This document shows, in pieces, positions 436 to 18,794 of a stretch of DNA of 21,431 nt. Where the stretch lies: the sequence record DRR378314_123; one strand, given 5' to 3'. The translations under genes and the position numbers were made by a program. The notes below the pieces were generated by a model, which saw nothing but the letters and a program-made list of their open reading frames with translations, did no database searches and was not told where the DNA came from. Numbering within the stretch: position 1 is the first letter of the stretch; each line of letters starts with the position of its first letter.

Positions 436-1557
436 CTATTGGCGCCCCAGCCACTCCTGAAACCATTGTTCTCGCAACTGAACCGTCTGCGAATACCAAC
501 GGTGATCGCGTACCACCGCTGTATCCAGGTGGGAGGGCGCTGTTGGCATGTAGGGGCGCATGGGCACGCCAACATCGGAATGCAGCCCTACCCGACTCTG
601 GGCAGACTTACGCGCGGGGCCGTAACTGATGAGGTTGGCCTGGGCAGCCATATTTTCAGCGCGGGTGGCAAAACCGATAAATGTCTCGGCCAGGTCGGCC
701 TGTTCGGTATCGCGGAGAATAGCCCAGCTGTTGAAGCCGATCAGTTGGCCGTCCCATATCACCGAGATCGGCGCACCTTCCATGGCTCTGGCGTGAAAGA
801 ATCGGCCATTGTAGCCCGTCGCCATGGCGGCCTGGCCGCTGGTAAGCAGCTCCACCGGTTCATCACCCCGGGTCCACCATACAATTGAGTCGCGAATACC
901 ATCCAGTTGCCGGGAAGCCAGTTCCAGTCCACGGCGGGTGCTGAGCAAATCGTAAAGCTGCTCCCTGGGCACAGAAAGGGATAGCAACGCCCACTCGAAC
1001 AGACCCACAGGGGATTGACGCAGCGCCCGTTTACCAGGAAACGAGGTGAGATCGAAGAAGTCCTCCACACTGTCGGGCTTGACGCCGGGAAACGCCCGGT
1101 CATCGAAGGCGATCACCGTTGAAAACACAATCTGGGTGATGAAGCATCGGTGAATAGCGTCTTCCATGAAGTCCTCCTGCGGCGGCGTACCGTCCGGCGC
1201 AGGTGCCAATATGGCTGGATCAATGTTTTCCAACAGGCCTTCCTCGCAGGCGGCGCTGGCATCGGACTGAATCATGTCAATCACATCCCACTCGGAATCG
1301 CCGCTGGCCAGTTGCTCCCGCAGGACCTTCACGCCGCCGTCGTAATGGACGGTTTCAATCGTTACACCGGTCGCATCCGTGAAGGGCTTAAAGTAGGCGC
1401 GTCTCTGACTGTCCTCGTAGGACCCACCCCAGGTCGCCACCGTCAGCACGTTCCGGGCCTCACCCCCCTCATCACCCGCTGCAGCCGCCAGGAAGCCCGG
1501 AACAGCCAGTAGGCCAAGCATCCACAGTGGCAATATCCTCGCACTAGGCCGCTTCAT
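436..1557 (-). CDS. Periplasmic substrate-binding protein, PotD/PotF (polyamine-type) family
   Basis: Signal-peptide-like N-terminus; motifs TWGGSY, PFTDATGV, WDVID, PGKRAL, YNGR, WDGQ, YGP. Start placed at ATG 1557 with GAGGA RBS; it overlaps the ClC stop by 14 nt. Confidence 0.88.
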   Translation of the reverse strand: MKRPSARILPLWMLGLLAVPGFLAAAAGDEGGEARNVLTVATWGGSYEDSQRRAYFKPFTDATGVTIETVHYDGGVKVLREQLASGDSEWDVIDMIQSDASAACEEGLLENIDPAILAPAPDGTPPQEDFMEDAIHRCFITQIVFSTVIAFDDRAFPGVKPDSVEDFFDLTSFPGKRALRQSPVGLFEWALLSLSVPREQLYDLLSTRRGLELASRQLDGIRDSIVWWTRGDEPVELLTSGQAAMATGYNGRFFHARAMEGAPISVIWDGQLIGFNSWAILRDTEQADLAETFIGFATRAENMAAQANLISYGPARKSAQSRVGLHSDVGVPMRPYMPTAPSHLDTAVVRDHRWYSQTVQLREQWFQEWLGRQ

Positions 1558-3274
1558 TTTCTTCCTCACGCAAGTCGTGCACGATTTCCAGGTAAGCCCG
1601 TATCACCGCCTCTTCCGGCACCACACCAAGCAGCCGCCCCTGCCTCGATACCAACGGAACGGCTTCGCCAAGAAAGCCCCGCAGCAACTCCATCGACTGC
1701 CACACAGAGGTCTCCTCATCAAAGGTGGTGAATGAGCGGATGGCCGCCTCCATCACCGGTGTTTCCGCGCTGCCGTTTACGATGCCCTGCAGCCGAATCA
1801 CGCCGAGCAAGTCGCCCTCTTGGTTCAGGACCATGGCTTCGGCACGGTGGTCGTCCACCAGACGCTGGCGTACGTCTCCCAGGGTGTCCCGGTCACTCGC
1901 CGTGGTGAAGTCACTGGATAGGTAATCCCGGATGTGGTGAGTCTCCAGGATGGCTTTATCCCGCCCCAGGGACAGGTCGAATCCCCGGGCCCGCAATTGC
2001 AGGTCAAACAGCGAGCGCCCGATCACCCGGTAGGAAATCAGGTTGGCGAAAACCACAGCCACCATGGCGGCGATGGTGAGGTCGTAACTGCGGGTCAGTT
2101 CAAACACGATCAGGATGGTGGTCAAAGGCGCACCGATGACGGAACTGGCCAGGGCCATCATGCCGCAGATGGCGTATACCACCAGCCCCGAATGCGGTAC
2201 CGGCGCCACATAAGGCAACACCAGGCCGTAGAAAGCGCCAAAAAGAATGCCGATTAGCAGGGCTGGGCTGAACACCCCGCCGACAAATCCAAACCCTACG
2301 CAAAGCGCCGTTAGTACCAGCTTGGCAATGATAATCAACGCCAGCTCACCGATTCCGAACGCGCCCTCGATGGTGGCGAAACGCAGAGTTTCCTGCCCTA
2401 TGCCCAGCACCTCCGGTATCCAAAGAGCCACAAGCCCCACTGCCAAACCGGCACCCGCCGGCCGGGCCCAGACTGGCGTGATATAACGCTTCGCTGCGTT
2501 GGCGCTGATCCTCAACAGAACCATGAACGCCCAGGCCAGGCCCGCGCACAACACGCCTTCCAGGGCAAAGAACACGAACTCATAGCTGTGCTCCACACGG
2601 TCGAAATTCACCAGAAACAACGCCGGGCGGTCAAAGATCACGTTGGCGATAATGTAGCCCGTTGCCGCCGCTACCGTGACCGGTGCAAAGGCACGCAAAG
2701 AGTAGTGGCGCAGAATCACCTCGTGGGCAAACACCAGCCCCGCTATCGGTGCGTTAAAGGCTGTGGAAATGGCCGCTGCAACACCGCAGGCGATGGCGAT
2801 GGACCGCTGATGCCGCAAATTCAGCCGCAGGCGCCCTGCCAGGTTCCCGAACATCGCCCCCAGGTACACCAACGGGCCATACTGCCCGACCGATGCGCCA
2901 CTGCCCAGAGACACCAGCGCCGCCAGTGTGGACGCCACGCCGCTTTTAAAACCGGGTGCCGGGCCGCTGGTCTGCGCAGCGAGAATCGCGTCCGGCGGCG
3001 ACAAGCCGCGTTTTTCCCGGATCAGAAACTGAACGATAAGCCCGACGACGAGACCACCCACCGCAGGCACGAGAACGGTCGCCGCCGCAACGAGCCCCGG
3101 CCTGTCGTCTGCCTGGATGCGAGCATAGGGTGAAATCAGCAGGCGGTCGTTGAGGTAATGCACCGCGTCCACGAAGCCGATCGCCGCAAGCGAGGCGACG
3201 GCGCCCACGACGATGGCAACCACCGTCACGGCGCTGATCTGATACACAATCTGTTGAACGCCTTTCCTGTCCAT
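1544..3274 (-). CDS. ClC-family chloride channel/transporter-like protein with C-terminal CBS pair; non-canonical selectivity motifs
   Basis: Multiple TM helices; GASVGQYGP (canonical GREGP), AFNAPIAG, GGVFSP, GAPLTTILIVFELT; CBS-like tail. Start moved to ATG 3274 (MDRKG) because the upstream ORF extension runs through the divergent promoter region. Confidence 0.9.
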   Translation of the reverse strand: MDRKGVQQIVYQISAVTVVAIVVGAVASLAAIGFVDAVHYLNDRLLISPYARIQADDRPGLVAAATVLVPAVGGLVVGLIVQFLIREKRGLSPPDAILAAQTSGPAPGFKSGVASTLAALVSLGSGASVGQYGPLVYLGAMFGNLAGRLRLNLRHQRSIAIACGVAAAISTAFNAPIAGLVFAHEVILRHYSLRAFAPVTVAAATGYIIANVIFDRPALFLVNFDRVEHSYEFVFFALEGVLCAGLAWAFMVLLRISANAAKRYITPVWARPAGAGLAVGLVALWIPEVLGIGQETLRFATIEGAFGIGELALIIIAKLVLTALCVGFGFVGGVFSPALLIGILFGAFYGLVLPYVAPVPHSGLVVYAICGMMALASSVIGAPLTTILIVFELTRSYDLTIAAMVAVVFANLISYRVIGRSLFDLQLRARGFDLSLGRDKAILETHHIRDYLSSDFTTASDRDTLGDVRQRLVDDHRAEAMVLNQEGDLLGVIRLQGIVNGSAETPVMEAAIRSFTTFDEETSVWQSMELLRGFLGEAVPLVSRQGRLLGVVPEEAVIRAYLEIVHDLREEENEAA

Positions 3275-3353
3275 GGAACAAGTAAAGTTCCGATTTGCGA
3301 TGTGCTCAACTGTTTGTCTGAAAACCGGGCCGGTAGAACAGCGCCATCCGCTT

Positions 3354-3417
3354 TGCCGCTTTTGGACGACTTGGTGTCGTATTGGATTTAGCACCCCCGA
3401 GCAATCCGGGCCACATT
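3354..3417 (+). promoter_or_regulatory. Tandem activator box (3354-3387) plus -10-like CACATT (3412-3417) for the DMG oxidase-like gene
   Basis: TGCCGCTTTTGGACGACTTGGTGTCGTATTGGAT is 24/34 identical to the box at 13022-13055 (minus), with the same 24-nt gap to CACATT. Confidence 0.75.
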
Positions 3418-3466
3418 GAATCAAGGCCGCGCATGCGGCTGCCATAGTGGGAAAAGGGGGATCAAG

Positions 3467-6037
3467 ATGGCACAACTACCGAAACGTGCAAAAGTCGTCA
3501 TTATTGGCCAGGGCGGTATCGTTGGCTCGTCGGTAGCCCACCACCTGATCGAACAGGGCTGGGACGACATCGTAGGGTTGGAAAAGTCGGCCATTCCCTC
3601 AGACATCGGCTCCACGTCCCACGCCTCGGACTTCTGCTTCACCACCTCGCACGACAAGCTGAATGTCTACACCACCAAATACAGCCAGGCGTTTTATGAG
3701 AAGCGCGGTAATTACGTGAAGTGCGGCGGTATGGAAGTCGCTCGCGCCGATGACGATGAGCGCATGGACGAGCTACGCCGCAAGGTGGGGTCTGGCAAGG
3801 CGTTCGGCACCAACGTCAGCATGATTTCACCGAAACAGGCGAAAGAACTGTTTCCCCTGCTGAATGAAGACTGCATACAAGGCGCCATGTGGGACCCGGA
3901 CGCCGGGCTGGTTGTGCCCCGTTCCCAAAGTGTCGCAGGTGACCTGGTTGAAGAAGCGGTTGCTACGGGAAAACTGCAGGCCTTCGCCTACACCCCAGCC
4001 ATCCGCATCGATGTGCAGGACGGCCAGGTGCGGGGCGTTGAGACCCACAAGGGTTATATCGAAACCGAGTACGTGGTGCTGTCCATGGGCATCTGGGGGC
4101 CACTGATGGCCAATACCGCCAACTCGCCGCTGCCGTTGATGCCCCTGGAACACCCACTGCTGTTCTTCGGCCCCTACGAAGAACTGGCCGGTACCGGCAA
4201 GCAGATCGTCTATCCCCTGTTCCGCGACCAGGGCAACTCGGCCTACGTGCGGGATACGGGCGACCCCACCACCACCGAGGGTGGGCGCATCGAGTGGGGC
4301 TATTATGAGGCCGAGGATCCACGGCTGGTCTATCCCGGAGCTATTGCCGAGCCTGGCGACGCACGTATGTCGCCCTCCATGCGCGACCTGACGCTGGATC
4401 AGGTCATGGACGCGTACGAAAAAGCCATCGAGATGACCCCGATCCTCGGCGAGTTGGGCTGGGAGGAAAAACACTCCTTTAACGGGCTGCTGTCAGTCAC
4501 ACCCGATGGCGGCTCACTGATGGGGGAATCCCCTGACGTGCGCAACTTATGGTTCTGCGAGGCGGTCTGGGTCAAGGATGGCCCAGGCGCGGGCAAAGTC
4601 CTGGCGGACTGGATGACCCATGGCTCTCCGGAAATGGACCCCCACAGCATCGACATTGCGCGCCACTATCCGCTGCAGAAAACCCCGGATTACGTGTACA
4701 ACCGCTGCTACGAAACCGCCAAGAAAATCTACACCCCGGCGGTTCATCCCCGTGAGCCCTACATGACCGGCCGCAAGATGCGCACCAGCCCGTTCTATCT
4801 GCGGGAGGTCGAACTGGGTGCCTATTTCATGGAGGCCGCCGGTTGGGAACGCGCCCATGGCTACGCCGCCAACGAGCCCACCCTGCTGGCGAAATACCGT
4901 GATCGCATCCCGGTGCGGGAACATGAATGGGACGCCCGGCATTTCTGGGACGTGTCCAACGCCGAGCAACTGGAAATGAGCGAATCAGTGGGCATGATCA
5001 ACCTCTCCCACTTCGCCATTTTCGACATCGCCGGTGACGACGCCGAAGCCCTGCTGGAGTACTTGTCCGTCGCCAAGGTGGGCGGCACCATTCCTCACGG
5101 CAAGGGTGTCTACACCCACTTCCTGGATGCCCGTGGCGGCATCCGTTCCGACCTGACCATCATCCGGCGGGGCGACAACGATTACCGGGTGGTCTGCGGG
5201 GGCGACACCGGTCATCGGGACCATTGCTGGATCAAACGCATGGCGCGGGAGAAGGGCCTGGACAACGTCCGCCTGCAGGACCGCACCGACGAGCTGGCCA
5301 CGTTGGGGCTTTGGGGGCCGAAGGCGCGGGAAACCCTCGCGCAGTTCGTCACCAACCCGGACGAACTGTCCGCCGACAATTTCCCTTTCGCCACCGCTCG
5401 GGAGCTGAACATCCAGGGCGTGCCTGTCTGGGCTTTCCGTATATCCTATGTGGGCGAGCAGGGATGGGAGCTCTATTTCCCATTCAGCTATGGCCTTCGC
5501 ATCTGGGACCTGCTTTACGAAGCCGGCGTTACCCCGGTTGGCATCGAAACCTATGCCAACACCCGCCGCCTGGAAAAAAGCCTGCGCCTGCAGAACGTGG
5601 ATCTGGAAACAGAGTACAACCTTTACGAAGCCGGGCTCCAGCGCCCCAAGGTCAAGGAAGCGGATTTCCACGGCAAGGCCGCCTACGTGGAACAACGGGA
5701 ATGGCCCCGCCAGGCCGCCTACCTTTGCACCATGACCATGACGGACCACCGGGACGCCAACGGCGTGCTGCGGTATCCGGTGGGCCAATGGCCCATCCTC
5801 GACCCGCAAACCGGCGAGGTACTGGTGGACAGCCACGGCCGCCGTTCCTACAACACCAGCGTGGCCTGGGGGCCGTCGGTGGGCAAGATTATCCTGCTAG
5901 GCTACATTCCCGTGGAGTATGCTCAGGAAGGCCGGGAGCTGACCCTGGAATACTTCCAGGAGCACTACCCCATCCGCATAGAGGCCGTGGGCTACCGGGC
6001 GATGTTTGATCCGGACAACGACCGGGTGAAGTCCTGA
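3467..6037 (+). CDS. Dimethylglycine oxidase/dehydrogenase-like flavoprotein (DAO-type FAD domain plus GcvT folate-binding domain)
   Basis: N-terminal Rossmann motif VVIIGQGGIVG; GSTSHA (covalent-FAD His position in DMG oxidase); TPDG; GWER; C-terminal GcvT fold (GGIRSDLT, RISYVGEQGWE, RLEKS). ATG 3467 has an AAGGGGG RBS. Confidence 0.88.
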   Translation: MAQLPKRAKVVIIGQGGIVGSSVAHHLIEQGWDDIVGLEKSAIPSDIGSTSHASDFCFTTSHDKLNVYTTKYSQAFYEKRGNYVKCGGMEVARADDDERMDELRRKVGSGKAFGTNVSMISPKQAKELFPLLNEDCIQGAMWDPDAGLVVPRSQSVAGDLVEEAVATGKLQAFAYTPAIRIDVQDGQVRGVETHKGYIETEYVVLSMGIWGPLMANTANSPLPLMPLEHPLLFFGPYEELAGTGKQIVYPLFRDQGNSAYVRDTGDPTTTEGGRIEWGYYEAEDPRLVYPGAIAEPGDARMSPSMRDLTLDQVMDAYEKAIEMTPILGELGWEEKHSFNGLLSVTPDGGSLMGESPDVRNLWFCEAVWVKDGPGAGKVLADWMTHGSPEMDPHSIDIARHYPLQKTPDYVYNRCYETAKKIYTPAVHPREPYMTGRKMRTSPFYLREVELGAYFMEAAGWERAHGYAANEPTLLAKYRDRIPVREHEWDARHFWDVSNAEQLEMSESVGMINLSHFAIFDIAGDDAEALLEYLSVAKVGGTIPHGKGVYTHFLDARGGIRSDLTIIRRGDNDYRVVCGGDTGHRDHCWIKRMAREKGLDNVRLQDRTDELATLGLWGPKARETLAQFVTNPDELSADNFPFATARELNIQGVPVWAFRISYVGEQGWELYFPFSYGLRIWDLLYEAGVTPVGIETYANTRRLEKSLRLQNVDLETEYNLYEAGLQRPKVKEADFHGKAAYVEQREWPRQAAYLCTMTMTDHRDANGVLRYPVGQWPILDPQTGEVLVDSHGRRSYNTSVAWGPSVGKIILLGYIPVEYAQEGRELTLEYFQEHYPIRIEAVGYRAMFDPDNDRVKS

Positions 6038-6064
6038 TCGGTAACCTTTGCCGCTACCTGGCGG

Positions 6065-7447
6065 TCAGCACTCGATGATGTTGACCGCCAGCCCGCCTCT
6101 TGAAGTTTCCTTGTACTTGTCCAGCATATCGCGCCCGGTTTCCCGCATGGTGTGCAACACCTTGTCCAGGGAAACGAAATGTTGCCCGTCGCCTCTCAGT
6201 GCCATAATGGCGGCGTCAATGGCCTTCACCGATGCCATGGCGTTGCGTTCGATACAGGGAATCTGTACCAGCCCGCCAATGGGGTCGCAGGTCATGCCCA
6301 GGTGATGTTCCATGCCTATCTCGGCCGCATTTTCCACTTGTTCCGGTGAACCACCCGTCGCCGCCGCCAGACCCGCAGCGGCCATGGCACACGCGGAGCC
6401 CACTTCCCCCTGGCAGCCGACCTCAGCCCCGGAAATGGAGGCGTTCTCCTTGAACAGAACGCCAATGGCCGCTGCTGTCAGCATGAAGCGGACAATGCCA
6501 TCTTCGCTGGCCTGGGGACAGAATTCCCAGTAGTAATGCAGTACCGCCGGGATAATGCCCGCGGCACCGTTGGTAGGGGCCGTCACAATTCGCCCGCCGA
6601 CAGCGTTCTCTTCGTTAACAGCCAGGGCATAGAGATTAACCCAGTCGAGCGCGCTCAATGACGGCGATATCAGGTCCACCCGCGTCTTATCCATCAGCGA
6701 ACGGTACAGCGATGCGGCCCGGCGCCGGACCTTGAGCCCCCCGGGCAATTCGCCCTCATGGCGAATGCCGTTCTGAACACATTCCCGCATAACCCGCCAG
6801 AGCTCGAGGATGCCGGCGCGAATCTCATCAGGCGTGCGCCAGGCCTGCTCATTGGCGTGCATGATCTCGGCAATTGTGAGGCCGTGTTCCTGACACAGGG
6901 CCAGCAGGGCCTTACCGCTGCTGAAAGGGTAGGACTGCGGTGTTTCGTCAGTGCGGATTTCCAGGGCGCCATCACTATTGGCAGCCACAACAAACCCACC
7001 GCCCACCGAATAATAGGTTCTTTCCCACAGGCAGTGTCCGTCTTGATCAAAGGCCTGACAGATCATGCCATTGGGGTGTTCCGACAGCGATTTCCGGCGG
7101 TAATACACCAGGTCTGTGCTGTCATCAAAACGAACCGCCTGCTGGCCGGCCAGGGAAAGGGTTCCGGAGCGCCGGATCTGCTCAAGCCGACCCGGCATTG
7201 TCTCGGGATCAATCCGGGCCGGCCTCTCCCCTTCCAGGCCCATCATGACGGCTGGGCCAGTACCATGGCCTTTGCCTGTGGCGCCAAGGGAGCCATAAAG
7301 CGAGACTTTGAGGCGATGTACGGATGCCAGCAGACCCTCATCGTCCAGACTATCGGCAAACCGGCGCGCGGCCTCCATGGGCCCGACGGTATGGGAACTG
7401 GACGGTCCAATGCCTGCCTTGAACAGCTCAAACAGACTGACAGCCAC
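6065..7447 (-). CDS. sdaA: L-serine ammonia-lyase (Fe-S dependent)
   Basis: [95 protein letters not shown] start with AGGAGG RBS. Confidence 0.97.
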
Positions 7448-7478
7448 TTTTCAGCCTCCTACCTTGGGGTGTACTTGA

Positions 7479-7542
7479 AGGATAGCCCTATCGGCGAACC
7501 ATCGCCTGCTTGCTGACGACATTCGAACGATGGTTTACGACA
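7479..7542 (-). promoter_or_regulatory. Third, more divergent copy of the tandem box (7542-7509) plus -10 TATCCT (7484-7479) for sdaA
   Basis: Minus strand reads TGTCGTAAACCATCGTTCGAATGTCGTCAGCAAG. It keeps TGnCG-N8-CG-N6-TGTCGT, the 21-bp half-site period and the 24-nt gap to a TAnnnT hexamer. Confidence 0.6.
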
Positions 7543-7570
7543 GTTCCGGTTTGCGAAAAAACATCGTGCA

Positions 7571-7620
7571 CGTCGCATTTGGATCATTCCACACAACGCC
7601 ATGTCGGTTGTGGACCATTC
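7571..7620 (+). repeat. Imperfect 19-bp direct repeat (31-bp period) upstream of the regulator
   Basis: CGTCGCATTTGGATCATTC (7571-7589) and TGTCGGTTGTGGACCATTC (7602-7620), 14/19 identical; each resembles the first half-site of the tandem box. Confidence 0.5.
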
Positions 7621-7670
7621 GCGTCCCGACCGCCAGAATAGAATGAGACCACAGCGCAACTGATCACTTA

Positions 7671-7689
7671 TTGCACTATTGAAGTGCAA
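7671..7689. promoter_or_regulatory. Palindromic operator, NtrC-like (TGCAC-N7-GTGCA)
   Basis: TTGCACT-ATTGA-AGTGCAA is a perfect 7-bp inverted repeat in the sdaA/regulator intergenic region. Confidence 0.55.
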
Positions 7690-7775
7690 CAACTAAGGTT
7701 CAGGTTGAGGCAATCCACTTGGCGCATCAGCCAGACATTGTCGCGACAGGCCCAGGCGGGGCAAGGGGGTTTCCC

Positions 7776-8888
7776 ATGACCACTTATAGCGGCTCACACT
7801 CAGACAAGCCCGCCCCGGAGCCCTATCGGGTCGGCTTCCTGCTGATCGAGAATTTCACCCTGATTGCTCTCGCCACGGCCGTTGAGCCGCTACGCATGGC
7901 CAACCAGTTGGCCGGTACCGAACTCTATTCCTGGAAGCTTCTGACCGCCGAGGGCGAGCCCGCCCGCGCCAGCGATGGCATTACCATGCTACCGGACGCG
8001 TCCATCCAGGAAGAGCACCCGTTTGACCTGGTGATCGTGGTGGCTGGTATTGATGTTACCCGGAGCTTTTCCCGCAAGGAGGTCGTCTGGCTGAAGCAGA
8101 TGGCCCGTCGCCATGTCCTCCTCGGAGCGGTCTGCACCGGGCCCTATGTTCTGGCCAGTGCAGGTTTGCTGGACGGCCACGCCTGTAGCGCTCACTGGGA
8201 GTGCCTGGAGGCTATGCAAGAAGGTTTTCCTCGGGTGCAGACCAACAACCGACTGTTCACGGTCGAACGGGAACGCATGACCTGTACCGGCGGCACTGTG
8301 CCCATGCACATGATGCTCAGCTTCCTGTCACGACGCCACGGCCAGGAACTCAGCAACGCGGTGTCCCACATGTTCGTCTGCGACCGTGTGCGCGAGGAGA
8401 GCGAACAGCAACCCATGCCCATGCACCCTCGCCTGGCCTGTGCCCAGCCCAAACTGGCGGAAGCGGCCCAGTTGATGGAGGCCAATATCGAGGAGCCTAT
8501 CGAGTTGAAGGAACTGGCCACACTGGCTGGCATTTCGCGGCGGCAACTGGAGCGGCTTTTCCTCAAACACATGGGCTGCACACCGTCGCGCTATTACTTG
8601 CGTGTGCGCCTCAACCGGGCCCGCCGCTTGCTGAAGCAGACGTCCTGCTCAATTGTAGAAATCGCCTCCATGTGCGGGTTCGTATCCGCCACCCACTTCA
8701 GCCGGTGCTATCGCAAGAGCATGGGGCGCGCCCCCAAATACGAGCGGATGGAAATCTATTCGCAGGACGCCACCGGAACGGTTCTTACCGATTCCATGAC
8801 CAGCCTCCCGTCCTCTTCCCTGCAGGCATTGAGGCGCGCCCGGGCCGAGCCGACCTACGGTATTTTCGAGGATACCGGTTCAGGTTAA
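7776..8888 (+). CDS. GlxA-family (GbdR/SouR-like) AraC transcriptional regulator with N-terminal DJ-1/GATase-like domain
   Basis: GFLLIENFTLIALATAVEPLRMANQL, GAVCTG, AGLLDG, HWE, MEANIEEP, SRRQLERLF, P.RYYL..RL..AR.LL, CGF.SATHFSRCYR. ATG 7776 with AAGGGGG RBS. Confidence 0.93.
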   Translation: MTTYSGSHSDKPAPEPYRVGFLLIENFTLIALATAVEPLRMANQLAGTELYSWKLLTAEGEPARASDGITMLPDASIQEEHPFDLVIVVAGIDVTRSFSRKEVVWLKQMARRHVLLGAVCTGPYVLASAGLLDGHACSAHWECLEAMQEGFPRVQTNNRLFTVERERMTCTGGTVPMHMMLSFLSRRHGQELSNAVSHMFVCDRVREESEQQPMPMHPRLACAQPKLAEAAQLMEANIEEPIELKELATLAGISRRQLERLFLKHMGCTPSRYYLRVRLNRARRLLKQTSCSIVEIASMCGFVSATHFSRCYRKSMGRAPKYERMEIYSQDATGTVLTDSMTSLPSSSLQALRRARAEPTYGIFEDTGSG

Positions 8889-10616
8889 CCCCACCACCAG
8901 GCCGTTGTCGTCAAGCGCGATGTCCAACGCTGCTGGGTGGCGGGGTAAACCGGGCATGGTCATGATGTCGCCACACACCGCCACCACAAATCCGGCTCCG
9001 GCACACAAGCGCACTTCCCTCACCGGCAGCATGTGGCCGGATGGCGCTCCCTTCACCGATGAATCCGCCGAAAAACTGTACTGGGTCTTGGCGATACACA
9101 CCGGCAGGTGGCCAAAGCCCAGGCTTTCGTATTCCTCGAGTTGCCGCTTCGCCACCGTGGTGAACTCCACGCTACCGGCGTGGTAGATGCGGGTGGCAAT
9201 GGTACGGATCTTGTCGGCCAGCGGAACGCTGTCTTCATAGAGAAAGTTCACCTCTGGCGCGTCCTCATCCATCTGATCAAGCACCGCCTGAGCCAAGTCG
9301 GTGGCCCCCTCTCCGCCCGTTGCCCAGTGGTCGGCGGGCACCGCCCTCACACCCATGGATTCACTGATGGACTGCACCAGTGACATTTCCTCCTCGGTAT
9401 CGTCCGGGAAGCGGTTGATGCACACCACCGGCGTGAGCCCGAACTGCTGCAGGTTGCGAATGTGCCGTTCCAGGTTGGCCGCACCTTCGCGCACGGCAGC
9501 CAGATCAGGAACAGAGAGTTGGCTCCGAGACACACCACCCTGCATCTTGAGCGCCCGGATGGTACAGACAACAACCGCGGCATCGGGGCGCAGCCCGGTC
9601 TGCCGGCACTTGATATCGATGAACTTCTCCGCCCCCAGGTCGGCGCCAAACCCGGCCTCCGTGACCACCACGTCGTTCAGGGCGAGGGCGGCGCGGGTAG
9701 CGGTCACGGAATTGCAGCCGTGGGCGATATTGGCGAAGGGCCCGCCATGGATAAACACGGGGTTGTGCTCCAGACTCTGGACCAGGTTAGGCTGCAACGC
9801 CTCTTTCAACAGCACCGTCAACGACCCTTCCACACCGAGATCACGAACGGTCACCGGGGTCATGTCAGAGCGCCTGCCAACGATGATATTGCCCAACCGC
9901 TGTTTCAGGTCCGCGCGTCCATCCGCCAGGCAGAGGATCGCCATGATTTCAGACGAGACCGTGATATCAAATCCGGTTTCCCGGGGCACACCATGGGGAG
10001 CCCCACCCAGGCCACAGACCATATTTCGCAGGGAGCGGTCGGTCAGGTCCATGACTCTTCGCCAGCTGATGTAACGCGTGTCCAGCCCGGCTTCGTTCCC
10101 CCAGTGAATGTGATTGTCGATCAACGAGGCCAGCAGGTTATGGGCGGTAGTGATGGCGTGAAAATCACCATTGAAATGCAGGTTGATATCTTCCATGGGA
10201 ATCACCTGTGCACGACCACCACCGGCAGCCCCACCCTTCATGCCAAAGCAGGGGCCAAGGGATGGCTCCCGCAGGCACACGGATGATCGCACACCAAGGC
10301 GATTGAAACCGTCGTTCAGTCCCACACTGGTGGTGGTCTTGCCCTCCCCCGCTGGCGTAGGTGTAATGGCGGTCACCAGCACCAGCTTGCCCCGTGGCGC
10401 CGTCTCAGAGGTATCCACATAGGCCATGTCAAGCTTGGCCTTATAGTGGCCAAAGGGCACCAGGCTTTCTCCCGGCAAACCGAAACGCTGTTGTGCCAAC
10501 AGCAGAATGGACTGCGGCTGAACCGACCGGGCAATCTCGATGTCCGGCGTGCCCGGCGGTGGAAACTCTGCGGCTGTCGCGGCTGCGGGTGTCAATTTAC
10601 TGTACTGAAGACTCAT
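8880..10616 (-). CDS. fhs: Formate--tetrahydrofolate ligase
   Basis: TAITPTPAGEGKTTT, LREPSLGPCFGMKGGAAGGG, HGGPFANIAHGCNS, VTEAGFGADLGAEKF, CIAKTQYSFS, IMTMPGLP. Start reassigned to ATG 10616 (MSLQYS, GGGAG RBS), overlapping the end of metF. Confidence 0.97.
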   Translation of the reverse strand: MSLQYSKLTPAAATAAEFPPPGTPDIEIARSVQPQSILLLAQQRFGLPGESLVPFGHYKAKLDMAYVDTSETAPRGKLVLVTAITPTPAGEGKTTTSVGLNDGFNRLGVRSSVCLREPSLGPCFGMKGGAAGGGRAQVIPMEDINLHFNGDFHAITTAHNLLASLIDNHIHWGNEAGLDTRYISWRRVMDLTDRSLRNMVCGLGGAPHGVPRETGFDITVSSEIMAILCLADGRADLKQRLGNIIVGRRSDMTPVTVRDLGVEGSLTVLLKEALQPNLVQSLEHNPVFIHGGPFANIAHGCNSVTATRAALALNDVVVTEAGFGADLGAEKFIDIKCRQTGLRPDAAVVVCTIRALKMQGGVSRSQLSVPDLAAVREGAANLERHIRNLQQFGLTPVVCINRFPDDTEEEMSLVQSISESMGVRAVPADHWATGGEGATDLAQAVLDQMDEDAPEVNFLYEDSVPLADKIRTIATRIYHAGSVEFTTVAKRQLEEYESLGFGHLPVCIAKTQYSFSADSSVKGAPSGHMLPVREVRLCAGAGFVVAVCGDIMTMPGLPRHPAALDIALDDNGLVVGLT

Positions 10617-11526
10617 GGAATGGCTCCCTCTGGCCCTGCACGGACCCGCTATGATCGTGAATCCATTGCGCCGACTGGCGCAGACCACCGAATGGGAAAA
10701 GATGTATGCCCCGAAGAAGGGTTTCGGGGTTGTCGAGGCAATACCGGACGAGCGCATGGACCATGCCGTCCGGCGTCCAGGCCCGCAGCAGCTTGGCGCT
10801 GCCCGGGCGCCGCAACATAAGGCGGGCGGACGCGCCCACACCGCATTGGGCGGCATAGGCAATAAGGGTTTTGACGCGCGTGGGACCGGCCATGCCGATG
10901 TAAACCGGTACCTCTTCCAGGATGTTACCCAGGCTTTGCAGCCAATCGATCACCACCTCTGCGTCGAAGGTGAACTGGGTAACCACCCACAGCCGGGTGG
11001 ACGTCGTGCGTGCGTATTCACGCTTGATGCCAAGAGCCTGGGTCAGCGTTGCCCTGTCCGCCATTGGGTGGCCGTCCGGATGGGCAGCCACGCCGATACC
11101 GTGGAACCGGAACTGGGCCAGCAGGCCGGACTCCAGAACCGCCAGGGTATCCGGAAAAGGGCCGGCAATGGCATCGCTGTCGCCGGCAATCAACAGCAAA
11201 CGGTCAACGCCGCTTTCCTCCAGTTGGGCCAGCCAGTCCCGCAGTTGCTCGCGGCTTTCCGCCATACGTGCAGGTACATGAGGGATGGGCTGCATGCCCA
11301 GTTCAAGGAGATGTCGGCACGCCTGCAGCGTGTCGCTGAACTGCCCCTTTGGCAGAAACGGCACATAGACACAGGTCCCCGCAGGCAGCAGATCCGGCAA
11401 ACTTTCCTGCGTCAGTATCTGGCGGGGTGTCGCCTCAATGGACGCAGAGCGCACCAACGCGCGTAACCGTTCAGCAGCGTCATCGTCGCGAGGACGGAAC
11501 GGCTGTTTTTCGCTCACCAGTTTCAT
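10597..11526 (-). CDS. metF: Methylenetetrahydrofolate reductase-like flavoprotein (MetF family, divergent type)
   Basis: SIEATP, PIPHVPAR, LLLIAGD, GVAAHPDGHP, VTQFTFD, YIGMAGP, GIHLFPFGG; lies between a GcvT-family demethylase and fhs. Confidence 0.85.
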   Translation of the reverse strand: MKLVSEKQPFRPRDDDAAERLRALVRSASIEATPRQILTQESLPDLLPAGTCVYVPFLPKGQFSDTLQACRHLLELGMQPIPHVPARMAESREQLRDWLAQLEESGVDRLLLIAGDSDAIAGPFPDTLAVLESGLLAQFRFHGIGVAAHPDGHPMADRATLTQALGIKREYARTTSTRLWVVTQFTFDAEVVIDWLQSLGNILEEVPVYIGMAGPTRVKTLIAYAAQCGVGASARLMLRRPGSAKLLRAWTPDGMVHALVRYCLDNPETLLRGIHLFPFGGLRQSAQWIHDHSGSVQGQREPFHESSVQ

Positions 11527-11559
11527 AAATAATGCACCCCATTGCTACCTGTGTGCACT

Positions 11560-11585
11560 GGCCAGGTGGCCCTAGCCACCCGGCC
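11560..11585. other. GC-rich intergenic stem-loop between the demethylase gene and metF
   Basis: GGCCAGGTGGC-CCTA-GCCACCCGGCC, an 11-bp stem with one non-Watson-Crick position and no U-tract. Confidence 0.5.
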
Positions 11586-11595
11586 TGTCGTGCCG

Positions 11596-12957
11596 CTAAT
11601 CGGCGAAGTCGATGCCTTTCGCACGAGCCCGCTCTCGGGCATTGGGGTTCACCGATGGCCGGAAGGGCACTTCCACCACTTCTGCCGCGACAGCCGTTGA
11701 ACCGTCTGCAGCGGCATATTCCACTGGCAGATGGACCGTCAGGCGAGTGCCAACGGCTCGCAGGTCAAAGGGCACATAGGCCAGTCCGATGTTGGTTTCC
11801 AGCTCGGGCGAGTACCAGGGTGAGGTGACATAGCCCTCCGGCTCACCTCCGTCCGGCCCGCTGACCAGCCAAAAGTCATTGGCGTAGTCGGTTACATGAC
11901 CGCCGTCGAAGCGTATTCCCACCATGATGTGACTGAATGGCGGTCTGCCCGCGTCCAACTGTTCACGCACCTTCTCAAGCGCCTGCTTGCCGATATAGTC
12001 AGCGTCTTTGTTGCGGGGCACCTGGTACGCCAGGTTGCATTGGAACGGCAGGGTTTCCTGGTCCACATCCTGCCCCCAGGACAGAATCCCGGCCGCGATC
12101 CTCCGATGGTGTGCCGGTGCAATCACCCGGAGGTTGTGGGCCTCACCGGCCGCAAGCACGGTGTACCAGAGGTCCTCGGCGTACTTGGTGGCTTCCTTGA
12201 GGTAGATTTCGTAGCCCTTCTCACCGGTAAAACCGGTCTGGGAAACGATGACATCGTGGCCAGCAACCTGGCCCTCCATCAGCCCGTAGTAGGGAATGTC
12301 TTTCACCTTTTCACCGAACAGGTCCGCCATCAGTGCTTCGGACTTGGGTCCCTGAATCTGGACCGGCGCCACGTCAATTTCTGCGATACTGACATTGAAG
12401 CCCATCCCGATATTAACGCCCCTCATCCAGAACTCGAGGTCGCTGTCTGAGAGTGAGAACCAGAATTCGTCCTCGGCGACACGAAGCAGAACCGGGTCGT
12501 TGAGAATACCGCCCTCTTCGTTGCACAGAATGACGTACTTGCCGCGCATCGGTTTTATCTTGGTCGCGTCCCGGGTGATGACATAGTTCACAAAGCGTTC
12601 CGCGTCCGGGCCCTTGACCTGGATCTGGCGTTCAACAGCCACGTTCCACATGGTGACGTCGTGAATCAGCGACTCGTACTCAACCATGGCGCCGCCGTCT
12701 TCAGGACGGACATAGCCACGAGGATGGTACATGCGGTTATAAACGGTTGCCCGCCAGCAGCCGGCCTCGTAGGCCAGGTGCCAATAGGGTGACTTGCGCA
12801 CCCTGGTGGAAATCAACATCTCTACCGGCGTGGGGCCGGACTGACGAAGGTTGATGGGAACCCGACGGTCGGACTGATCAACGCTGTCAGGCTGGCGGGC
12901 GGCACCCGCCCGTTGTTGCGGATAATCCAGAAGTGCTTGCTCAAATTTAACGGCCAT
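11596..12957 (-). CDS. GcvT/aminomethyltransferase-family, DmdA-like THF-dependent demethylase (substrate unknown)
   Basis: STRVRKSP, TVYNRM, WNVAVERQIQVKGPDA, GGILNDPV, FWFSLSDSDL, IQGP, TGFTGEKGYEIY, GILSWGQD, YIGKQAL, SPWYSP; this motif order matches DmdA-type proteins. About 45-aa N-terminal extension. GGGGAG RBS. Confidence 0.85.
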   Translation of the reverse strand: MAVKFEQALLDYPQQRAGAARQPDSVDQSDRRVPINLRQSGPTPVEMLISTRVRKSPYWHLAYEAGCWRATVYNRMYHPRGYVRPEDGGAMVEYESLIHDVTMWNVAVERQIQVKGPDAERFVNYVITRDATKIKPMRGKYVILCNEEGGILNDPVLLRVAEDEFWFSLSDSDLEFWMRGVNIGMGFNVSIAEIDVAPVQIQGPKSEALMADLFGEKVKDIPYYGLMEGQVAGHDVIVSQTGFTGEKGYEIYLKEATKYAEDLWYTVLAAGEAHNLRVIAPAHHRRIAAGILSWGQDVDQETLPFQCNLAYQVPRNKDADYIGKQALEKVREQLDAGRPPFSHIMVGIRFDGGHVTDYANDFWLVSGPDGGEPEGYVTSPWYSPELETNIGLAYVPFDLRAVGTRLTVHLPVEYAAADGSTAVAAEVVEVPFRPSVNPNARERARAKGIDFAD

Positions 12958-12991
12958 TGCTATCTCCCCCTACCGGGTTGTCGATAGCTCT

Positions 12992-13055
12992 AATGTGCCC
13001 CTGTTTGAGTTTGTCAGGTTGAACCAATACGACATTGGCACGACCAAAAACGTCA
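12992..13055 (-). promoter_or_regulatory. Tandem activator box (13055-13022) plus -10-like CACATT (12997-12992) for the demethylase-metF-fhs operon
   Basis: Minus strand TGACGTTTTTGGTCGTGCCAATGTCGTATTGGTT shares the exact 11-mer TGTCGTATTGG, and the spacing, with the box at 3354. Confidence 0.75.
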
Positions 13056-13079
13056 GAGGGATGGCAACGGGCATCCCTC
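13056..13079 (-). terminator. Possible intrinsic terminator/hairpin after the permease gene
   Basis: GAGGGATG-N8-CATCCCTC perfect 8-bp stem 14 nt past the permease stop; followed on the minus strand by TGACGTTTTT (imperfect U-tract). Confidence 0.45.
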
Positions 13080-13093
13080 CAGGTTTGTCCCTG

Positions 13094-14443
13094 TCAGTCG
13101 TGGGGTATCGGGTCCGGGCTCCGATCCCAGCCTACCAGCGACAGTGTGGCCACCACCCCGATCAGCAAGCCGATCCAGGGCTCGAAGAACGCCAGCGAGG
13201 CACCGATCAGCACCACCGTTCCCCTGGACGCATTGTCCCTTGGAATGGACATGGCAATGTACGCGCAGGCAAAGCCGGTCAACACCAGCGTCAGCGACAG
13301 CGCAATCCCCAACAACGGCTTGAGGCCAGTGAGCAGCGGTAACAGAAAGAAGATAAAAGGCAGCCCCATCAGGTAATAGGACGCCAGGCCGCTGTGCAAA
13401 CTGCCCATCGCCTTCGGCCCCTGCTTCCAGCGCTGCACGACGATCACGTGCACGCCAGTCCAGACTGCGCCCTGGGTCGGGAAAAACGGCGCCGCAATAC
13501 CCATCAATGCGTTGCGGATCGCGATCGAGAAATGGGTGCGGTTCAGGTTGATGTCGATGTGTTCGTCTTTCCTGTCCTTCATCCCGTCGCGGAGTACTTC
13601 GTTCCCCGTCACGATATCGCCGAACAGGATAATGTACGCAATCAGTGCCAGCGGCACACTCTGGGCAATCATCTCCAGGGTCGGCCAGCCGTTGACCAAG
13701 GGTGACGCTTTGGCAAAGGCCTCAGGCAGTGGCGGCACGATAAAGCCCCACTGGATATCAAAGTTGACTTCGCCCACCAACGGGCCGACGACGGCCGCGA
13801 TAATAAAGCCGGGAAGCAGGCCCAGGGCACCCAGCATCAGGAAGAACCGGTTGCGTGCCTTGAGCCTCTGCATGGGCAGGGAAAAGGTAAAAATCAGGCA
13901 CACCGCGCAGGCAAGCGTGGTGGCAACCGGTTGCTCAAGCAGGAACCGGTCGGCATCGTCGATGAACACCCGCTTCAGGGCCGCGATGGACGCACCGAGA
14001 ATAATCCCGGCCTTGAGGGTATCCGGCAGCCAGATCACCAGCCGTTTCCCCAGCCCGGTAATACCCAGCACAAACACCAGGCTCGCGAAGACCATGGTCA
14101 GTGCCGTCATCGCCTGGAACCGGCTTGAGGGGTCTTCATACCCCCCGATAACAAACGCCAGTATCAGGGGCAGCGCCGGCGTTATCCAGCCACCGGCGTA
14201 GGGTTCGCCAAATATGATCACCGCCGATGCGATCAGGAACGCGTGGACCATCGACAGTGCCACGGCTTCCTCGAAGCTGAGGCCAAAATAGGCGGTCATG
14301 ACCGGAATCAGCGCGAGGCCTGTGGCCGCGGAAACGAACAGGCCCTGAAGGAACTCAGACCAACACAATCGGGTGTGGTAAAACGGGAGACGGAAGGTAA
14401 AAGGCCCCCAGCGCCAGCCCGCCAACTCTTGTCTTTCTGCCAT
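13094..14443 (-). CDS. Polytopic inner-membrane permease (BenE/NCS2-like fold suspected), putative solute importer
   Basis: 449 aa, roughly 11-13 hydrophobic segments; GWITPALP and KAGIILGA resemble BenE/NCS2-type transporters; directly upstream of the demethylase on the same strand. Confidence 0.7.
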   Translation of the reverse strand: MAERQELAGWRWGPFTFRLPFYHTRLCWSEFLQGLFVSAATGLALIPVMTAYFGLSFEEAVALSMVHAFLIASAVIIFGEPYAGGWITPALPLILAFVIGGYEDPSSRFQAMTALTMVFASLVFVLGITGLGKRLVIWLPDTLKAGIILGASIAALKRVFIDDADRFLLEQPVATTLACAVCLIFTFSLPMQRLKARNRFFLMLGALGLLPGFIIAAVVGPLVGEVNFDIQWGFIVPPLPEAFAKASPLVNGWPTLEMIAQSVPLALIAYIILFGDIVTGNEVLRDGMKDRKDEHIDINLNRTHFSIAIRNALMGIAAPFFPTQGAVWTGVHVIVVQRWKQGPKAMGSLHSGLASYYLMGLPFIFFLLPLLTGLKPLLGIALSLTLVLTGFACAYIAMSIPRDNASRGTVVLIGASLAFFEPWIGLLIGVVATLSLVGWDRSPDPIPHD

Positions 14444-14629
14444 CTCGGATCACTCGCTTGTCGTTATAGTTGTCGTGACCTGAGTATGAAAAGGGTTTGG
14501 CTATTCCGCGAATGAATTTTTCTGATTTACAGGGATAAACGATATTGATGCACAGCGAGTAGGGCCACTGGATCAATACCCGCCCAAACTATTAGACTTT
14601 AAACCCTTTATTCATACAGAAGGGACCCG

Positions 14630-14983
14630 ATGAAACACACTGTTGCGGTCTACGGCACGCTGAAGCGCGGCTACAGCAACCACCACCTGCTCGACAAAGC
14701 CTGCTATATTGGTTCTGACACTCTCACCAGCCTGACCCTTTACGACCTTGGGCCCTACCCCGGTGCCCTACCCAAACCGTCTGACGGGGTGGAGGTTGAA
14801 ATCTACGCCGTAAACAGCCTGTTACTGGCGACGCTGGATGAACTGGAGGGCTACGACCCGGAGGCGACAAAGACGAGCCTGTACCTGCGCAAACGCATGC
14901 AGACCTGCCATGGCCAGGCGTGGGTATACCTGTACAACAGGCCTGTCAGCAACCGCCAGCGCATCGATAGTGGACACTGGTAG
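14630..14983 (+). CDS. Gamma-glutamylcyclotransferase (AIG2/YtfP-like) family protein
   Basis: VAVYGTLKRG.SNHHLL, LYDLGPYPGA, EIYAV, LDELEGY, Y.R, AWVYLYN. Confidence 0.9.
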   Translation: MKHTVAVYGTLKRGYSNHHLLDKACYIGSDTLTSLTLYDLGPYPGALPKPSDGVEVEIYAVNSLLLATLDELEGYDPEATKTSLYLRKRMQTCHGQAWVYLYNRPVSNRQRIDSGHW

Positions 14984-15028
14984 CGACTCAATCCGATTCA
15001 CCCGTCCGCGCAGATCAAGGAGCCGACG

Positions 15029-15442
15029 TTGACATTGACCACCCCCGCCCTTCTGTTCCCCGCCATATCATTGCTATTGCTGGCCTACACCAACCGTTTC
15101 CTCGTCCTGGCGCAGTTGATCCGTCAACTCAAACAGATGGACACGGAAGAAGACCACGCGCTGATTGCACGGCAGATCAGCATGCTGCGCAAACGCATTG
15201 TGCTGACCAAACGGATGCAGGCCTATGGTGTACTCAGTTTTTTCGTCTGCACCATGTCCATGTTCGTGCTGTTTGTCGGTGCCGAGCTTGCAGGGGCCAT
15301 CGCTTTCGGAATCAGCCTGATACTGCTTTCCGTGTCCCTGCTCTATTCACTGTACGAGATCGTGATTTCAACCAACGCCATCAACGTTGAACTTGAGAGC
15401 TTTGAGGCAAGGAAGCAGGGGGAAGCGGGAAAGCAGGAATAA
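15029..15442 (+). CDS. DUF2721-type small membrane protein
   Basis: TTPALLFPAISLLLLAYTNRF N-terminus, LRKRI, three TM segments; TTG start with AGGAG RBS at 15018-15022. Confidence 0.8.
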   Translation: MTLTTPALLFPAISLLLLAYTNRFLVLAQLIRQLKQMDTEEDHALIARQISMLRKRIVLTKRMQAYGVLSFFVCTMSMFVLFVGAELAGAIAFGISLILLSVSLLYSLYEIVISTNAINVELESFEARKQGEAGKQE

Positions 15443-16433
15443 CCGCCTCCTCCAGCAGCGCGTTCTGCTTCTGCATAAAAGCGGGCGACGCCGGCGGCCG
15501 GGGATTGGACGTCATCACCACGGTCATTTCAAGCTCCGGAAACACGTACAGCATCTGCCCACCGAAGCCGCGTCCGTAATAGGCGCGGTAGCCTCCCAGC
15601 TCGGTCACAAACCAGCCATATCCGTACCGGTCATCGGTGTAGCGGGACGTGCCGCGTTGAGTCCATGACTTCTCGATCCAATCACGGGAGAGCAGTTGTT
15701 CTCCGTCATGGATACCGCTGTTCCGATAGAGCTCACCGATCTGCAATAGCGCCATTGGCGACAGGCGCATGTCATTGCCACCGAAATAGATGCCCTGGGG
15801 GTCCGTCAGCCAGGGGTCAATCCGGATACCCAGTGGCTCACCGAGCCAATCGCGAGTGATCGCCAACGTACTGCGCCCGGTAGTCCTGGTGAGCGCCGCC
15901 GAAAGCAGGTGGTAGCTGCCGGTGGAGTACAGCATCTCGCCGCCTGGCTCCGCCACAAACGGGCGGCTGAGTGCGTAATCAACCCAGTTGTCGCTGTTTA
16001 CCCATGGCCCATAGTAGCGGCCGGAAGTACGCTGCAACCCGGCCTGCATGGACAACAAGTTGCCAATCGTCACCTCACTGACCCGGTCACTGGCGTCGGG
16101 CGGTTCCTCAAGAAACGCCGTGATCGGCTGTTCCACGCTGTTGAACACACCCCGGTCAATCGCCATGCCCACCACCGCGGAAAGCACGGTTTTGGAGAGG
16201 GATTTGATATTGGCCGGCTCATCAAGCCCCGAGCCACGGAACACCTCTGAAAACACCGGCTCACCGTCAACGGCGATCACCAGGCTGTGAAGTCGCTCCA
16301 GACTGACGGCACGGTCCGACAGACCCGGAAACACCTCTTCGCTTCCAACAGGCCCGTCGGCCAGGAGGGGAGACGCCAAAAGCGTCAGGCCGGTGGACAA
16401 AACCACTGCAGCAAGGCTCGTTACAACCCGCAT
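15381..16433 (-). CDS. Serine hydrolase, beta-lactamase/class C-like family, secreted
   Basis: SxxK (SLSK), LLSMQAGL, PG...YSTG (Y-x-x motif), G.GFGGQ.LYVFP; signal peptide from ATG 16433 (MRVVTS). Confidence 0.88.
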   Translation of the reverse strand: MRVVTSLAAVVLSTGLTLLASPLLADGPVGSEEVFPGLSDRAVSLERLHSLVIAVDGEPVFSEVFRGSGLDEPANIKSLSKTVLSAVVGMAIDRGVFNSVEQPITAFLEEPPDASDRVSEVTIGNLLSMQAGLQRTSGRYYGPWVNSDNWVDYALSRPFVAEPGGEMLYSTGSYHLLSAALTRTTGRSTLAITRDWLGEPLGIRIDPWLTDPQGIYFGGNDMRLSPMALLQIGELYRNSGIHDGEQLLSRDWIEKSWTQRGTSRYTDDRYGYGWFVTELGGYRAYYGRGFGGQMLYVFPELEMTVVMTSNPRPPASPAFMQKQNALLEEAVIPAFPLPPASLPQSSQVQR

Positions 16434-16437
16434 GGAA

Positions 16438-16716: not shown

Positions 16717-16727
16717 TGCAAACTACC

Positions 16728-17156: not shown

Positions 17157-17189
17157 GTTGTCTCCCGGAACAAGGGTTAGCAGCTCGGC

Positions 17190-18787: not shown

Positions 18788-18794
18788 GGTTTTT

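Follow-up and report, generated by a model that had tools for sequence, protein, structure and literature searches.

A DmdA-like gene, a predicted type-4 methylenetetrahydrofolate reductase gene and a GbdR-type promoter box in Marinobacter: a candidate tetrahydrofolate-dependent route for glycine betaine demethylation

Glycine betaine is a main osmolyte and a nitrogen-rich substrate in the sea. We describe here a gene cluster that may remove its first methyl group by direct transfer to tetrahydrofolate (THF), located in sequence record DRR378314_123, a stretch of DNA of 21,431 nucleotides (nt) referred to throughout as the window. Genes were called from a listing of open reading frames (ORFs) combined with Pfam and NCBIfam scans of 19 window ORFs, and all seven genes placed at the locus by an initial annotation of the same DNA were recovered where it had put them (Table 1). 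The conserved unit comprises an operon for a DmdA-like protein of the GcvT family, a MetF-like protein and Fhs, plus a flavoprotein gene transcribed on its own. No Rieske, PF02574 or MttB domain was detected in the 19 scanned ORFs, nor did a BHMT-like probe find a match in the window by tblastn, in agreement with the annotation, which had reported no gene for GbcAB, BHMT or MtgB in the window. The window comes from a Marinobacter: its DmdA-like protein shares 98% identity with the one encoded in a complete Marinobacter metagenome-assembled genome (MAG; L001) and 97% with its counterparts in M. salarius R9SW1 and M. algicola DG893. The closest proxy genome was G010, also with a 98% identical protein; G numbers denote related genomes, and L numbers the related loci compared with the window, which are the best 80 of 463 stretches encoding a relative in contigs representing one genome per species.

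Table 1. Genes and regulatory features of the window discussed in the text
Feature	Position (nt)	Strand	Basis or remark
GbdR-type box before flavoprotein gene; two direct half-sites 21 nt apart	3354-3381	+	perfect pattern match
DMG (dimethylglycine) oxidase/dehydrogenase-like flavoprotein, 856 amino acids (aa)	3467-6037	+	DAO + FAO_M + GCV_T + GCV_T_C; FAD domain fused to GcvT-type folate domain
SdaA, L-serine ammonia-lyase	6065-7447	-	TIGR00720, 687 bits (cut-off 345)
GbdR, AraC-family regulator with DJ-1/PfpI domain; start codon uncertain	7719-8888	+	NF052371, 505.6 bits (cut-off 480)
Fhs, formate-tetrahydrofolate ligase; third operon gene, LigH analogue	8880 to ~10616	-	NF010030, 843 bits
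MetF-like protein, type-4 (S6MTHFR-type) methylenetetrahydrofolate reductase (MTHFR), predicted methyl-THF oxidiser	10597-11526	-	best solved relative 7xg9
DmdA-like GcvT-family protein, candidate glycine betaine:THF methyltransferase; first operon gene	11596-12957	-	PF01571 + PF08669
GbdR-type box before DmdA-like operon	13028-13055	-	pattern derived from upstream alignment
Terminator-like hairpin 3' of permease gene	13054-13081	-	10-pair stem; from a consensus scan only
Membrane protein (permease of the initial annotation), 449 aa, unnamed family	13094-14443	-	no Pfam or NCBIfam match

The DmdA-like protein carries the domains of the GcvT/aminomethyltransferase superfamily (PF01571, 138 bits; PF08669, 35 bits). 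Its best solved relative is DmdA of Pelagibacter (3tfh, E 3.8e-47) and its best NCBIfam match is the DmdA equivalog model NF009133, at 269.1 bits and thus below the cut-off of 410. The LigM and DesA models matched far below theirs (NF047885, 31 bits against 580; NF047633, 49 bits against 800). The family is tight, the best 120 relatives being 74-96% identical and mostly about 440-470 aa long; those that could be named came from Marinobacter, Tamilnaduibacter, Marinobacterium, Photobacterium, Parasalinivibrio, Woeseiaceae, Sedimenticola and Salinarimonas, and conservation at this level reaches across Marinobacter, Photobacterium, Woeseiaceae, Azotimanducaceae and some Alphaproteobacteria. The surrounding diversity was sampled by a search of 1.84 billion cluster representatives, from which 53 full-length representatives were scanned; five passed the DmdA equivalog cut-off. 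In a quick maximum-likelihood tree of 66 rows, rooted at the midpoint, the 13 family rows formed one clade with short branches (SH-aLRT 96-98), placed among uncharacterised DmdA-like paralogues and across the root from the five DmdA equivalogs. Judging by the sub-cut-off score and this separate, tight clade, the protein is not DmdA itself.

The closeness to DmdA nevertheless raises the question of a sulfur osmolyte. A divergent demethylase acting on dimethylsulfoniopropionate (DMSP) or another sulfonium compound, such as dimethylsulfonioacetate, would fit the fact that DmdA is the closest characterised family and likewise yields methyl-THF, and a published figure places metF and dmdA in one genome region of SAR11 (Sun et al. 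2011, PMC3160333). The score and the clade speak against it, and no genes of the methylmercaptopropionate (MMPA) pathway were found in the window by the Pfam and NCBIfam scans; with the promoter and co-occurrence evidence given below, we hold a sulfonium substrate to be very unlikely. The Trp said in PMC7487153 to be specific for DMSP (W171 there, W197 in chain 3tfh) is Phe in all 13 family members sampled, yet the DmdA equivalog representatives themselves have W, F or Y at this position, which was accordingly rejected as a discriminator.

The MetF-like protein points to the kind of reaction that its neighbour performs. It matched 7xg9, the S6MTHFR of Sphingobium lignivorans SYK-6, at E 1.9e-47, compared with 3.8e-8 for the next match, an ordinary MTHFR (3apt), and ordinary MTHFR models scored it below their cut-offs. 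The Leu48-Pro49 and Pro268-Phe269 motifs (S6MTHFR numbering) are kept in the window protein, and across 72 MetF-like sequences from the related loci Pro-Phe-Gly-Gly is kept in 58 and Leu-Pro in 57. By its similarity to S6MTHFR the protein is a type-4 MTHFR, for which oxidation of methyl-THF is predicted. The type-4 enzyme is described as oxidising CH3-THF to CH2-THF and barely reacting with NADH, with no reduction of CH2-THF observed in the assays described; it is encoded in ligM-metF-ligH and proposed as a partner of THF-dependent demethylases (PMC11868366, covering 68 S6MTHFR homologues).

The layout of the operon is well conserved. At the 75 related loci with at least 3 kb of sequence downstream, the MetF-like gene lies directly downstream of the DmdA-like gene in 70, Fhs lies downstream in 73, and both are present in the order DmdA-like, MetF, Fhs in 69; at L032, L034, L051 and L076, Fhs follows the DmdA-like gene directly and the MetF-like gene is missing. 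In the window, the ORF of Fhs is open up to 10862, with an ATG at 10616 that falls within the 3' end of the MetF-like gene. From the type-4 MTHFR and its ligM-metF-ligH-like arrangement we infer that the GcvT-family enzyme makes methyl-THF, that is, that it is a methyl transferase and not an aminomethyl transferase. Fhs would probably run in the formate-releasing direction. At L022 and L039 (~14300-19900) the three genes are followed by FdhD, a formate dehydrogenase alpha subunit, a NuoF-like subunit and then GbdR; this arrangement, found in some Marinobacter and Tamilnaduibacter, fits the oxidation of formate released by Fhs.

Proteins with a GcvT-type fold mostly produce methylene-THF, the folate domains of SoxA, DMGDH and Tdm being examples, and five Marinobacter genomes examined for it have no canonical GcvT. 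A T-protein-like enzyme forming aminomethyl- or methylene-THF, for example by capturing formaldehyde or the iminium product of an oxidase, with the MetF-like protein and Fhs as a general one-carbon module, must therefore be considered. A type-4 MTHFR, working only from methyl-THF, would be useless to a producer of methylene-THF, yet 70 of 75 loci have the two genes side by side; the flavoprotein has a folate domain of its own; and the nearest characterised relative, DmdA, is a methyl transferase. We give this explanation hardly any credence, and retain methyl transfer.

The operon also shares a promoter element with the flavoprotein gene. When the 200 nt preceding the DmdA-like gene were aligned for the window and 27 related loci, two direct half-sites spaced 21 nt apart stood out as conserved, with CACATTA 30 nt further on, and the alignment yielded the 28-nt pattern TGMCGYTTTYRG-N9-TGTCGYM. 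Only two perfect matches occur in the window, one before the DmdA-like gene and one before the flavoprotein gene, where CACATTG follows 30-31 nt after the box; the shared promoter boxes noticed in the initial annotation are thus borne out. A third match, with three mismatches, lies inside the permease gene; shuffled controls gave a mean of 0.14 matches at three mismatches or fewer. Genome-wide, the same two promoters are the sole perfect sites in G010, G089 and G079. G044 and G092 encode GbcA and SoxB and have no DmdA-like gene; there the best sites, each with one mismatch, flank the gbcA/soxB cluster. In G044 one of them lies between a GbdR gene (560 bits) and sdaA, and the other precedes a Peptidase_M19-DUF5943 pair, which heads dgcAB in Photobacterium (L056) and also in Vibrio natriegens and Pseudomonas (PMC12093977).

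Since the box marks promoters of classical betaine genes as well as those of the DmdA-like and flavoprotein genes, we read it as a GbdR site. The regulator encoded in the window combines PF01965 and PF12833 (DJ-1/PfpI and AraC helix-turn-helix) and scores above the NF052371 cut-off, as GbdR should, and it is predicted to bind this putative box. The DmdA-like operon is best read as belonging to the same regulon as the classical betaine genes; a sulfonium demethylase would not be expected under one box with betaine, DMG and serine genes. The box before the DmdA-like gene is kept, with at most two mismatches, in Marinobacter, Tamilnaduibacter, Marinobacterium, Saccharospirillum, Parasalinivibrio, Photobacterium and one alphaproteobacterial MAG, and the flavoprotein-side box is conserved in the Marinobacter loci that contain the flavoprotein gene. 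At Azotimanducaceae/Woeseiaceae-type loci the box is mostly absent and the GbdR-like genes are only 38-47% identical, with a two-mismatch site about 300 nt upstream at three of them. Over all 80 related loci, a GbdR-like gene is present in 64 and SdaA in 22. A repeat search within each intergenic region of the window gave nothing informative. The sdaA-gbdR intergenic region of the window holds no copy of the box at three mismatches or fewer; a 10-nt inverted repeat (TTATTGCACT / AGTGCAACAA) lies there at 7668-7692.

The permease was treated as a cluster member in the initial annotation and is left out of the unit here, because it is found in only nine of the 80 related loci, its gene is followed by a terminator-like hairpin, and no box serves it. 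The hairpin separates the permease gene from the DmdA-like gene, its T-run overlapping the first half-site of the operon's box, which lies downstream of the permease. A role as the pathway's transporter within the unit was rejected on the same three grounds. A language model likened the protein to xanthine/uracil and BenE-type permeases, a resemblance useful as a lead only.

The flavoprotein (ATG at 3467, preceded by the ribosome site GGGGGA) has as its best solved relative the N,N-dimethylglycine oxidase of Arthrobacter (1pj5, E 4.5e-109, residues 4-830). Its four-domain fusion and full-length similarity to a DMG enzyme fit the DMG oxidase/dehydrogenase class. In the complete genome G001 (M. 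salarius R9SW1) the corresponding gene (C1:3707339-3709497, equal to L002 17498-19543) is broken into two frames (714 and 224 aa) that divide the GCV_T domain between them, and the query matches over residues 1-661 only, which reflects either a frameshift or an error of sequencing.

Across 121 sampled Marinobacter genomes, 44 carry the DmdA-like gene and precisely these 44 carry the flavoprotein gene, a coupling to a DMG-oxidase-like gene that likewise argues against a sulfonium substrate. GbcA reached its cut-off in ten of the 121 genomes, SoxB was found in those ten and one more, and MttB exceeded its cut-off in none. The initial annotation had suggested checking whether genomes with the cluster lack gbcAB and bhmt. 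For GbcA this held only in part: of the 44 Marinobacter genomes with the DmdA-like gene, 38 yielded no GbcA and lack SoxB and MttB as well, and of 33 other genomes carrying the gene, 29 yielded none; in the rest GbcA co-occurs with the gene. Among those 33, three had GbcA above the cut-off and one a truncated match, six had MttB, and 23 had a second PF02574 match.

Gene order in Photobacterium bears on the first demethylation step. There the three operon genes (DmdA-like, MetF-like, Fhs) stand between soxB-(soxD)-soxA/G on one side and M19-DUF5943-dgcA-dgcB-etfA on the other. Six of seven Photobacterium genomes have no GbcA match, the seventh (G133) having a truncated one below the cut-off; MttB was found in none of the seven; and in four (G002, G131, G132 and G137) the only PF02574 match is of MetH size. 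P. alginatilyticum illustrates the pattern, with a single Rieske match of 28 bits, no GbcA, no MttB, and MetH as its only PF02574 protein. With the DMG and sarcosine steps covered, the step left open in Photobacterium is that of betaine. Loci of the Azotimanducaceae type have a GbdR-like gene, the three operon genes and a second type of FAD-GcvT fusion, and downstream of these some also have a soxB-like gene. Between Fhs and the FAD-GcvT gene there is, at three loci, a conserved ORF some 276 aa long (L075 13924-14754, L076 12997-13815, L079 13905-14735); it has no Pfam match and might be a real gene or an artefact of crude ORF picking.

The pathway that we propose would begin with the DmdA-like enzyme transferring one N-methyl of glycine betaine directly to N5 of THF, to give DMG and 5-methyl-THF, in a step independent of O2, cobalamin and homocysteine. 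The type-4 MTHFR would oxidise methyl-THF to methylene-THF, and housekeeping FolD together with the operon's Fhs, acting in reverse, would lead on to formate and ATP; in some relatives the formate dehydrogenase is encoded next door. DMG, perhaps with sarcosine too, would be oxidised by the flavoprotein, passing carbon to THF as methylene-THF; glycine and methylene-THF would give serine, and SdaA would convert serine to pyruvate. The operon and the separate DMG oxidase/dehydrogenase-like gene would both be driven from promoters with the GbdR-type box. We consider this combination, from betaine-to-THF methyl transfer through oxidation by the type-4 MTHFR and Fhs to DMG oxidation under GbdR, to be reasonably probable. 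The idea that a GcvT-family enzyme moves the first methyl of betaine to THF was already the core of the initial annotation. It is supported in part, by three independent lines: the predicted type-4, methyl-THF-oxidising MTHFR, the shared GbdR-type box, and strict co-occurrence with gap-filling synteny. It survived every computational test able to hurt it, with glycine betaine as the presumed substrate.

Several observations weigh against this pathway. Purified DmdA reportedly does not use betaine, in work attributed to Reisch and colleagues in 2008. A look for RNA runs carrying 8880-14443 found none. In the window's MetF-like protein, Arg78 of S6MTHFR is replaced by Met, the preceding Arg being kept. 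Mutual exclusion with GbcA was looked for and not found: six of the ten GbcA-positive Marinobacter genomes carry the DmdA-like gene and four do not, and the two co-occur also in Parasalinivibrio, Marinobacterium and Saccharospirillum. The part of the suggested check that concerned bhmt came out mixed. All but two of the 121 Marinobacter genomes have a MetH-sized PF02574 match, and a further one was found in 27 of the 44 genomes with the DmdA-like gene and in 25 of the 77 others; those further matches that were listed (31 were not) are stand-alone ORFs some 300-350 aa long, candidates for BHMT or MmuM. The four Photobacterium genomes with only a MetH-sized match stand on the other side. A small PF02574 gene is within reach in only two of the 80 loci. 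At L034, which has no MetF-like gene, a BHMT/MmuM-like gene of 328 aa (18200-19186, +) is divergent from the flavoprotein gene, with a box at 17374-17401 between them. The strongest contextual point against a simple gap-filling argument comes from three Azotimanducaceae-type loci at which the FAD-GcvT gene is immediately followed by a gene of the MttB superfamily (358 bits; L075 17235-18776, L079 17059-18765, L080 17236-18777), and where another betaine-type demethylase may perform the first step; no corrinoid-protein gene was found among the scanned neighbours at these loci.

A further difficulty is sarcosine. The initial annotation expected the sarcosine oxidase step to be encoded elsewhere, and in G010 no recognisable one was found among six scanned DAO-family ORFs, which are DadA-, GlpD- or L2HG-oxidase-like (a seventh, of 641 aa, lay outside the scan). 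SoxB is present in only six of the 44 Marinobacter genomes with the DmdA-like gene, which leaves a hole in the pathway. No close DgcA (all matches at 35% identity or less) was found in five Marinobacter genomes (G010, G001, G089, G027 and G019), in which the flavoprotein and the DmdA-like protein are the only two above the GCV_T cut-off; a canonical T protein of glycine cleavage is thus missing from these five, and glycine would exit via GlyA and SdaA. For the three methyl groups of betaine, only two demethylating enzymes are apparent in window-type genomes. Three explanations offer themselves: the flavoprotein accepts sarcosine as well as DMG, some enzyme not recognised here handles sarcosine, or the substrate of the DmdA-like enzyme lies one step further along.

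The last of these options belongs to a broader alternative, in which the enzyme is a THF-dependent methyltransferase for some other substrate: DMG, giving sarcosine for oxidation by the flavoprotein, or choline, proline betaine, carnitine or a homologue. The count of two enzymes for three methyl groups favours it; were the flavoprotein a sarcosine dehydrogenase, DMG would be a fitting methyl donor; GbdR of Pseudomonas responds to DMG as well (PMC12093977); and in some genomes the gene co-occurs with MttB and small PF02574 proteins, which perhaps handle betaine. We nevertheless judge it unlikely. Photobacterium has DgcAB for DMG and SoxBDAG for sarcosine, which leaves only the betaine step open, and the best solved relative of the flavoprotein is a DMG oxidase. 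General chemistry suggests, moreover, that methyl transfer to THF would be harder from a tertiary amine than from an onium ion, and no genes for carnitine, proline betaine or choline recur near the 33 non-Marinobacter loci. Glycine betaine thus remains our preferred substrate.

So far, the first step from betaine is known from three systems: GbcAB (an oxygenase), BHMT and MtgBCD (cobalamin-dependent). These are also the only ones given in recent papers on betaine catabolism, as far as their accessible text goes (PMC12478193, PMC12093977, bioRxiv 10.1101/2023.12.12.567942), one of which calls the marine bacterial genes for glycine betaine catabolism poorly characterised (2025, PMC12478193). That the cluster represents a fourth route, in which a single GcvT-family protein moves the methyl straight to THF, coupled to a type-4 MTHFR and ATP-yielding release of formate under GbdR control, is in our estimate slightly favoured by the evidence. 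No description of a GcvT-family, THF-dependent betaine demethylase was found in the literature, supplements excluded. GcvT-like aminomethyltransferases of unknown substrate, one of them beside a betaine transporter, are noted in SAR11 (Sun et al. 2011, PMC3160333), and the queries named in a 2025 survey of type-4 MTHFRs were LigM, DesA, CmuAB and Dmt, none of them DmdA-like (PMC11868366). The pairing of a THF-dependent demethylase with a type-4 MTHFR is known; what is most likely new here is the class of substrate and the role in the pathway.

If the proposal is true, this would be a betaine route needing neither oxygen nor vitamin B12, and it would explain how betaine enters metabolism in many marine Gammaproteobacteria that have genes for DMG and sarcosine and no gbcA. 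With a DMG enzyme of the dehydrogenase type, the use of betaine would require no oxygenase and could take place, for instance, under denitrifying conditions. The scheme of demethylase and type-4 MTHFR, recently defined for lignin aromatics, would reach N-methyl osmolytes, and the DmdA-like gene would become a new marker for metagenomes. The gene is easily mislabelled dmdA or gcvT, which would distort estimates of the DMSP cycle.

Beyond the conserved unit, a gene for a ClC-type chloride channel with CBS domains (1544-3475, -) is divergent from the flavoprotein gene, with a PotD-like solute-binding protein encoded beyond it (436-1569, -). The ClC neighbour was found again in few loci only (L002, L004, L037 and L048).

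Four known systems invite comparison. With DmdA, the DMSP:THF methyltransferase of Pelagibacter ubique (3TFH, NF009133), the window protein shares the GcvT fold and the NDPV and GYE(I/V)Y stretches of the folate site, and DmdA itself moves a methyl from an onium ion to THF, yielding methyl-THF. The window protein differs in having about 45 extra N-terminal and 40 extra C-terminal residues, in its sub-cut-off score and separate clade, and in a gene context and regulation that point to betaine, DMG and serine rather than to MMPA. The ligM-metF-ligH cluster of S. lignivorans SYK-6 offers the same layout of a GcvT-superfamily THF-dependent demethylase, a type-4 MTHFR and Fhs, and the window's MetF-like protein is a clear homologue of S6MTHFR; the demethylase, in contrast, is not LigM (31 against 580 bits for NF047885), and its substrate class would be an N-methyl onium compound instead of an aryl methyl ether.

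MtgBCD, known from Desulfitobacterium and Ruegeria pomeroyi (PMC12478193), is described as carrying out the same net reaction, betaine and THF to DMG and methyl-THF, using three proteins and cobalamin where a single GcvT-family protein is proposed here; MttB is missing from the sampled Marinobacter genomes but is encoded in the cluster at the three Azotimanducaceae-type loci. The GbdR regulon of Pseudomonas aeruginosa (gbcAB, dgcAB, soxBDAG, sdaB, glyA1) resembles the present system in the GbdR orthologue beside sdaA, in the shared box, and in the predicted flow of carbon from DMG through sarcosine, glycine and serine to pyruvate. It differs in its genes, since most genomes with the cluster are without GbcAB, DgcAB and SoxBDAG, and in its opening reaction: the first step here would be the transfer of a methyl group to folate, whereas in P. 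aeruginosa it is an oxygenation.

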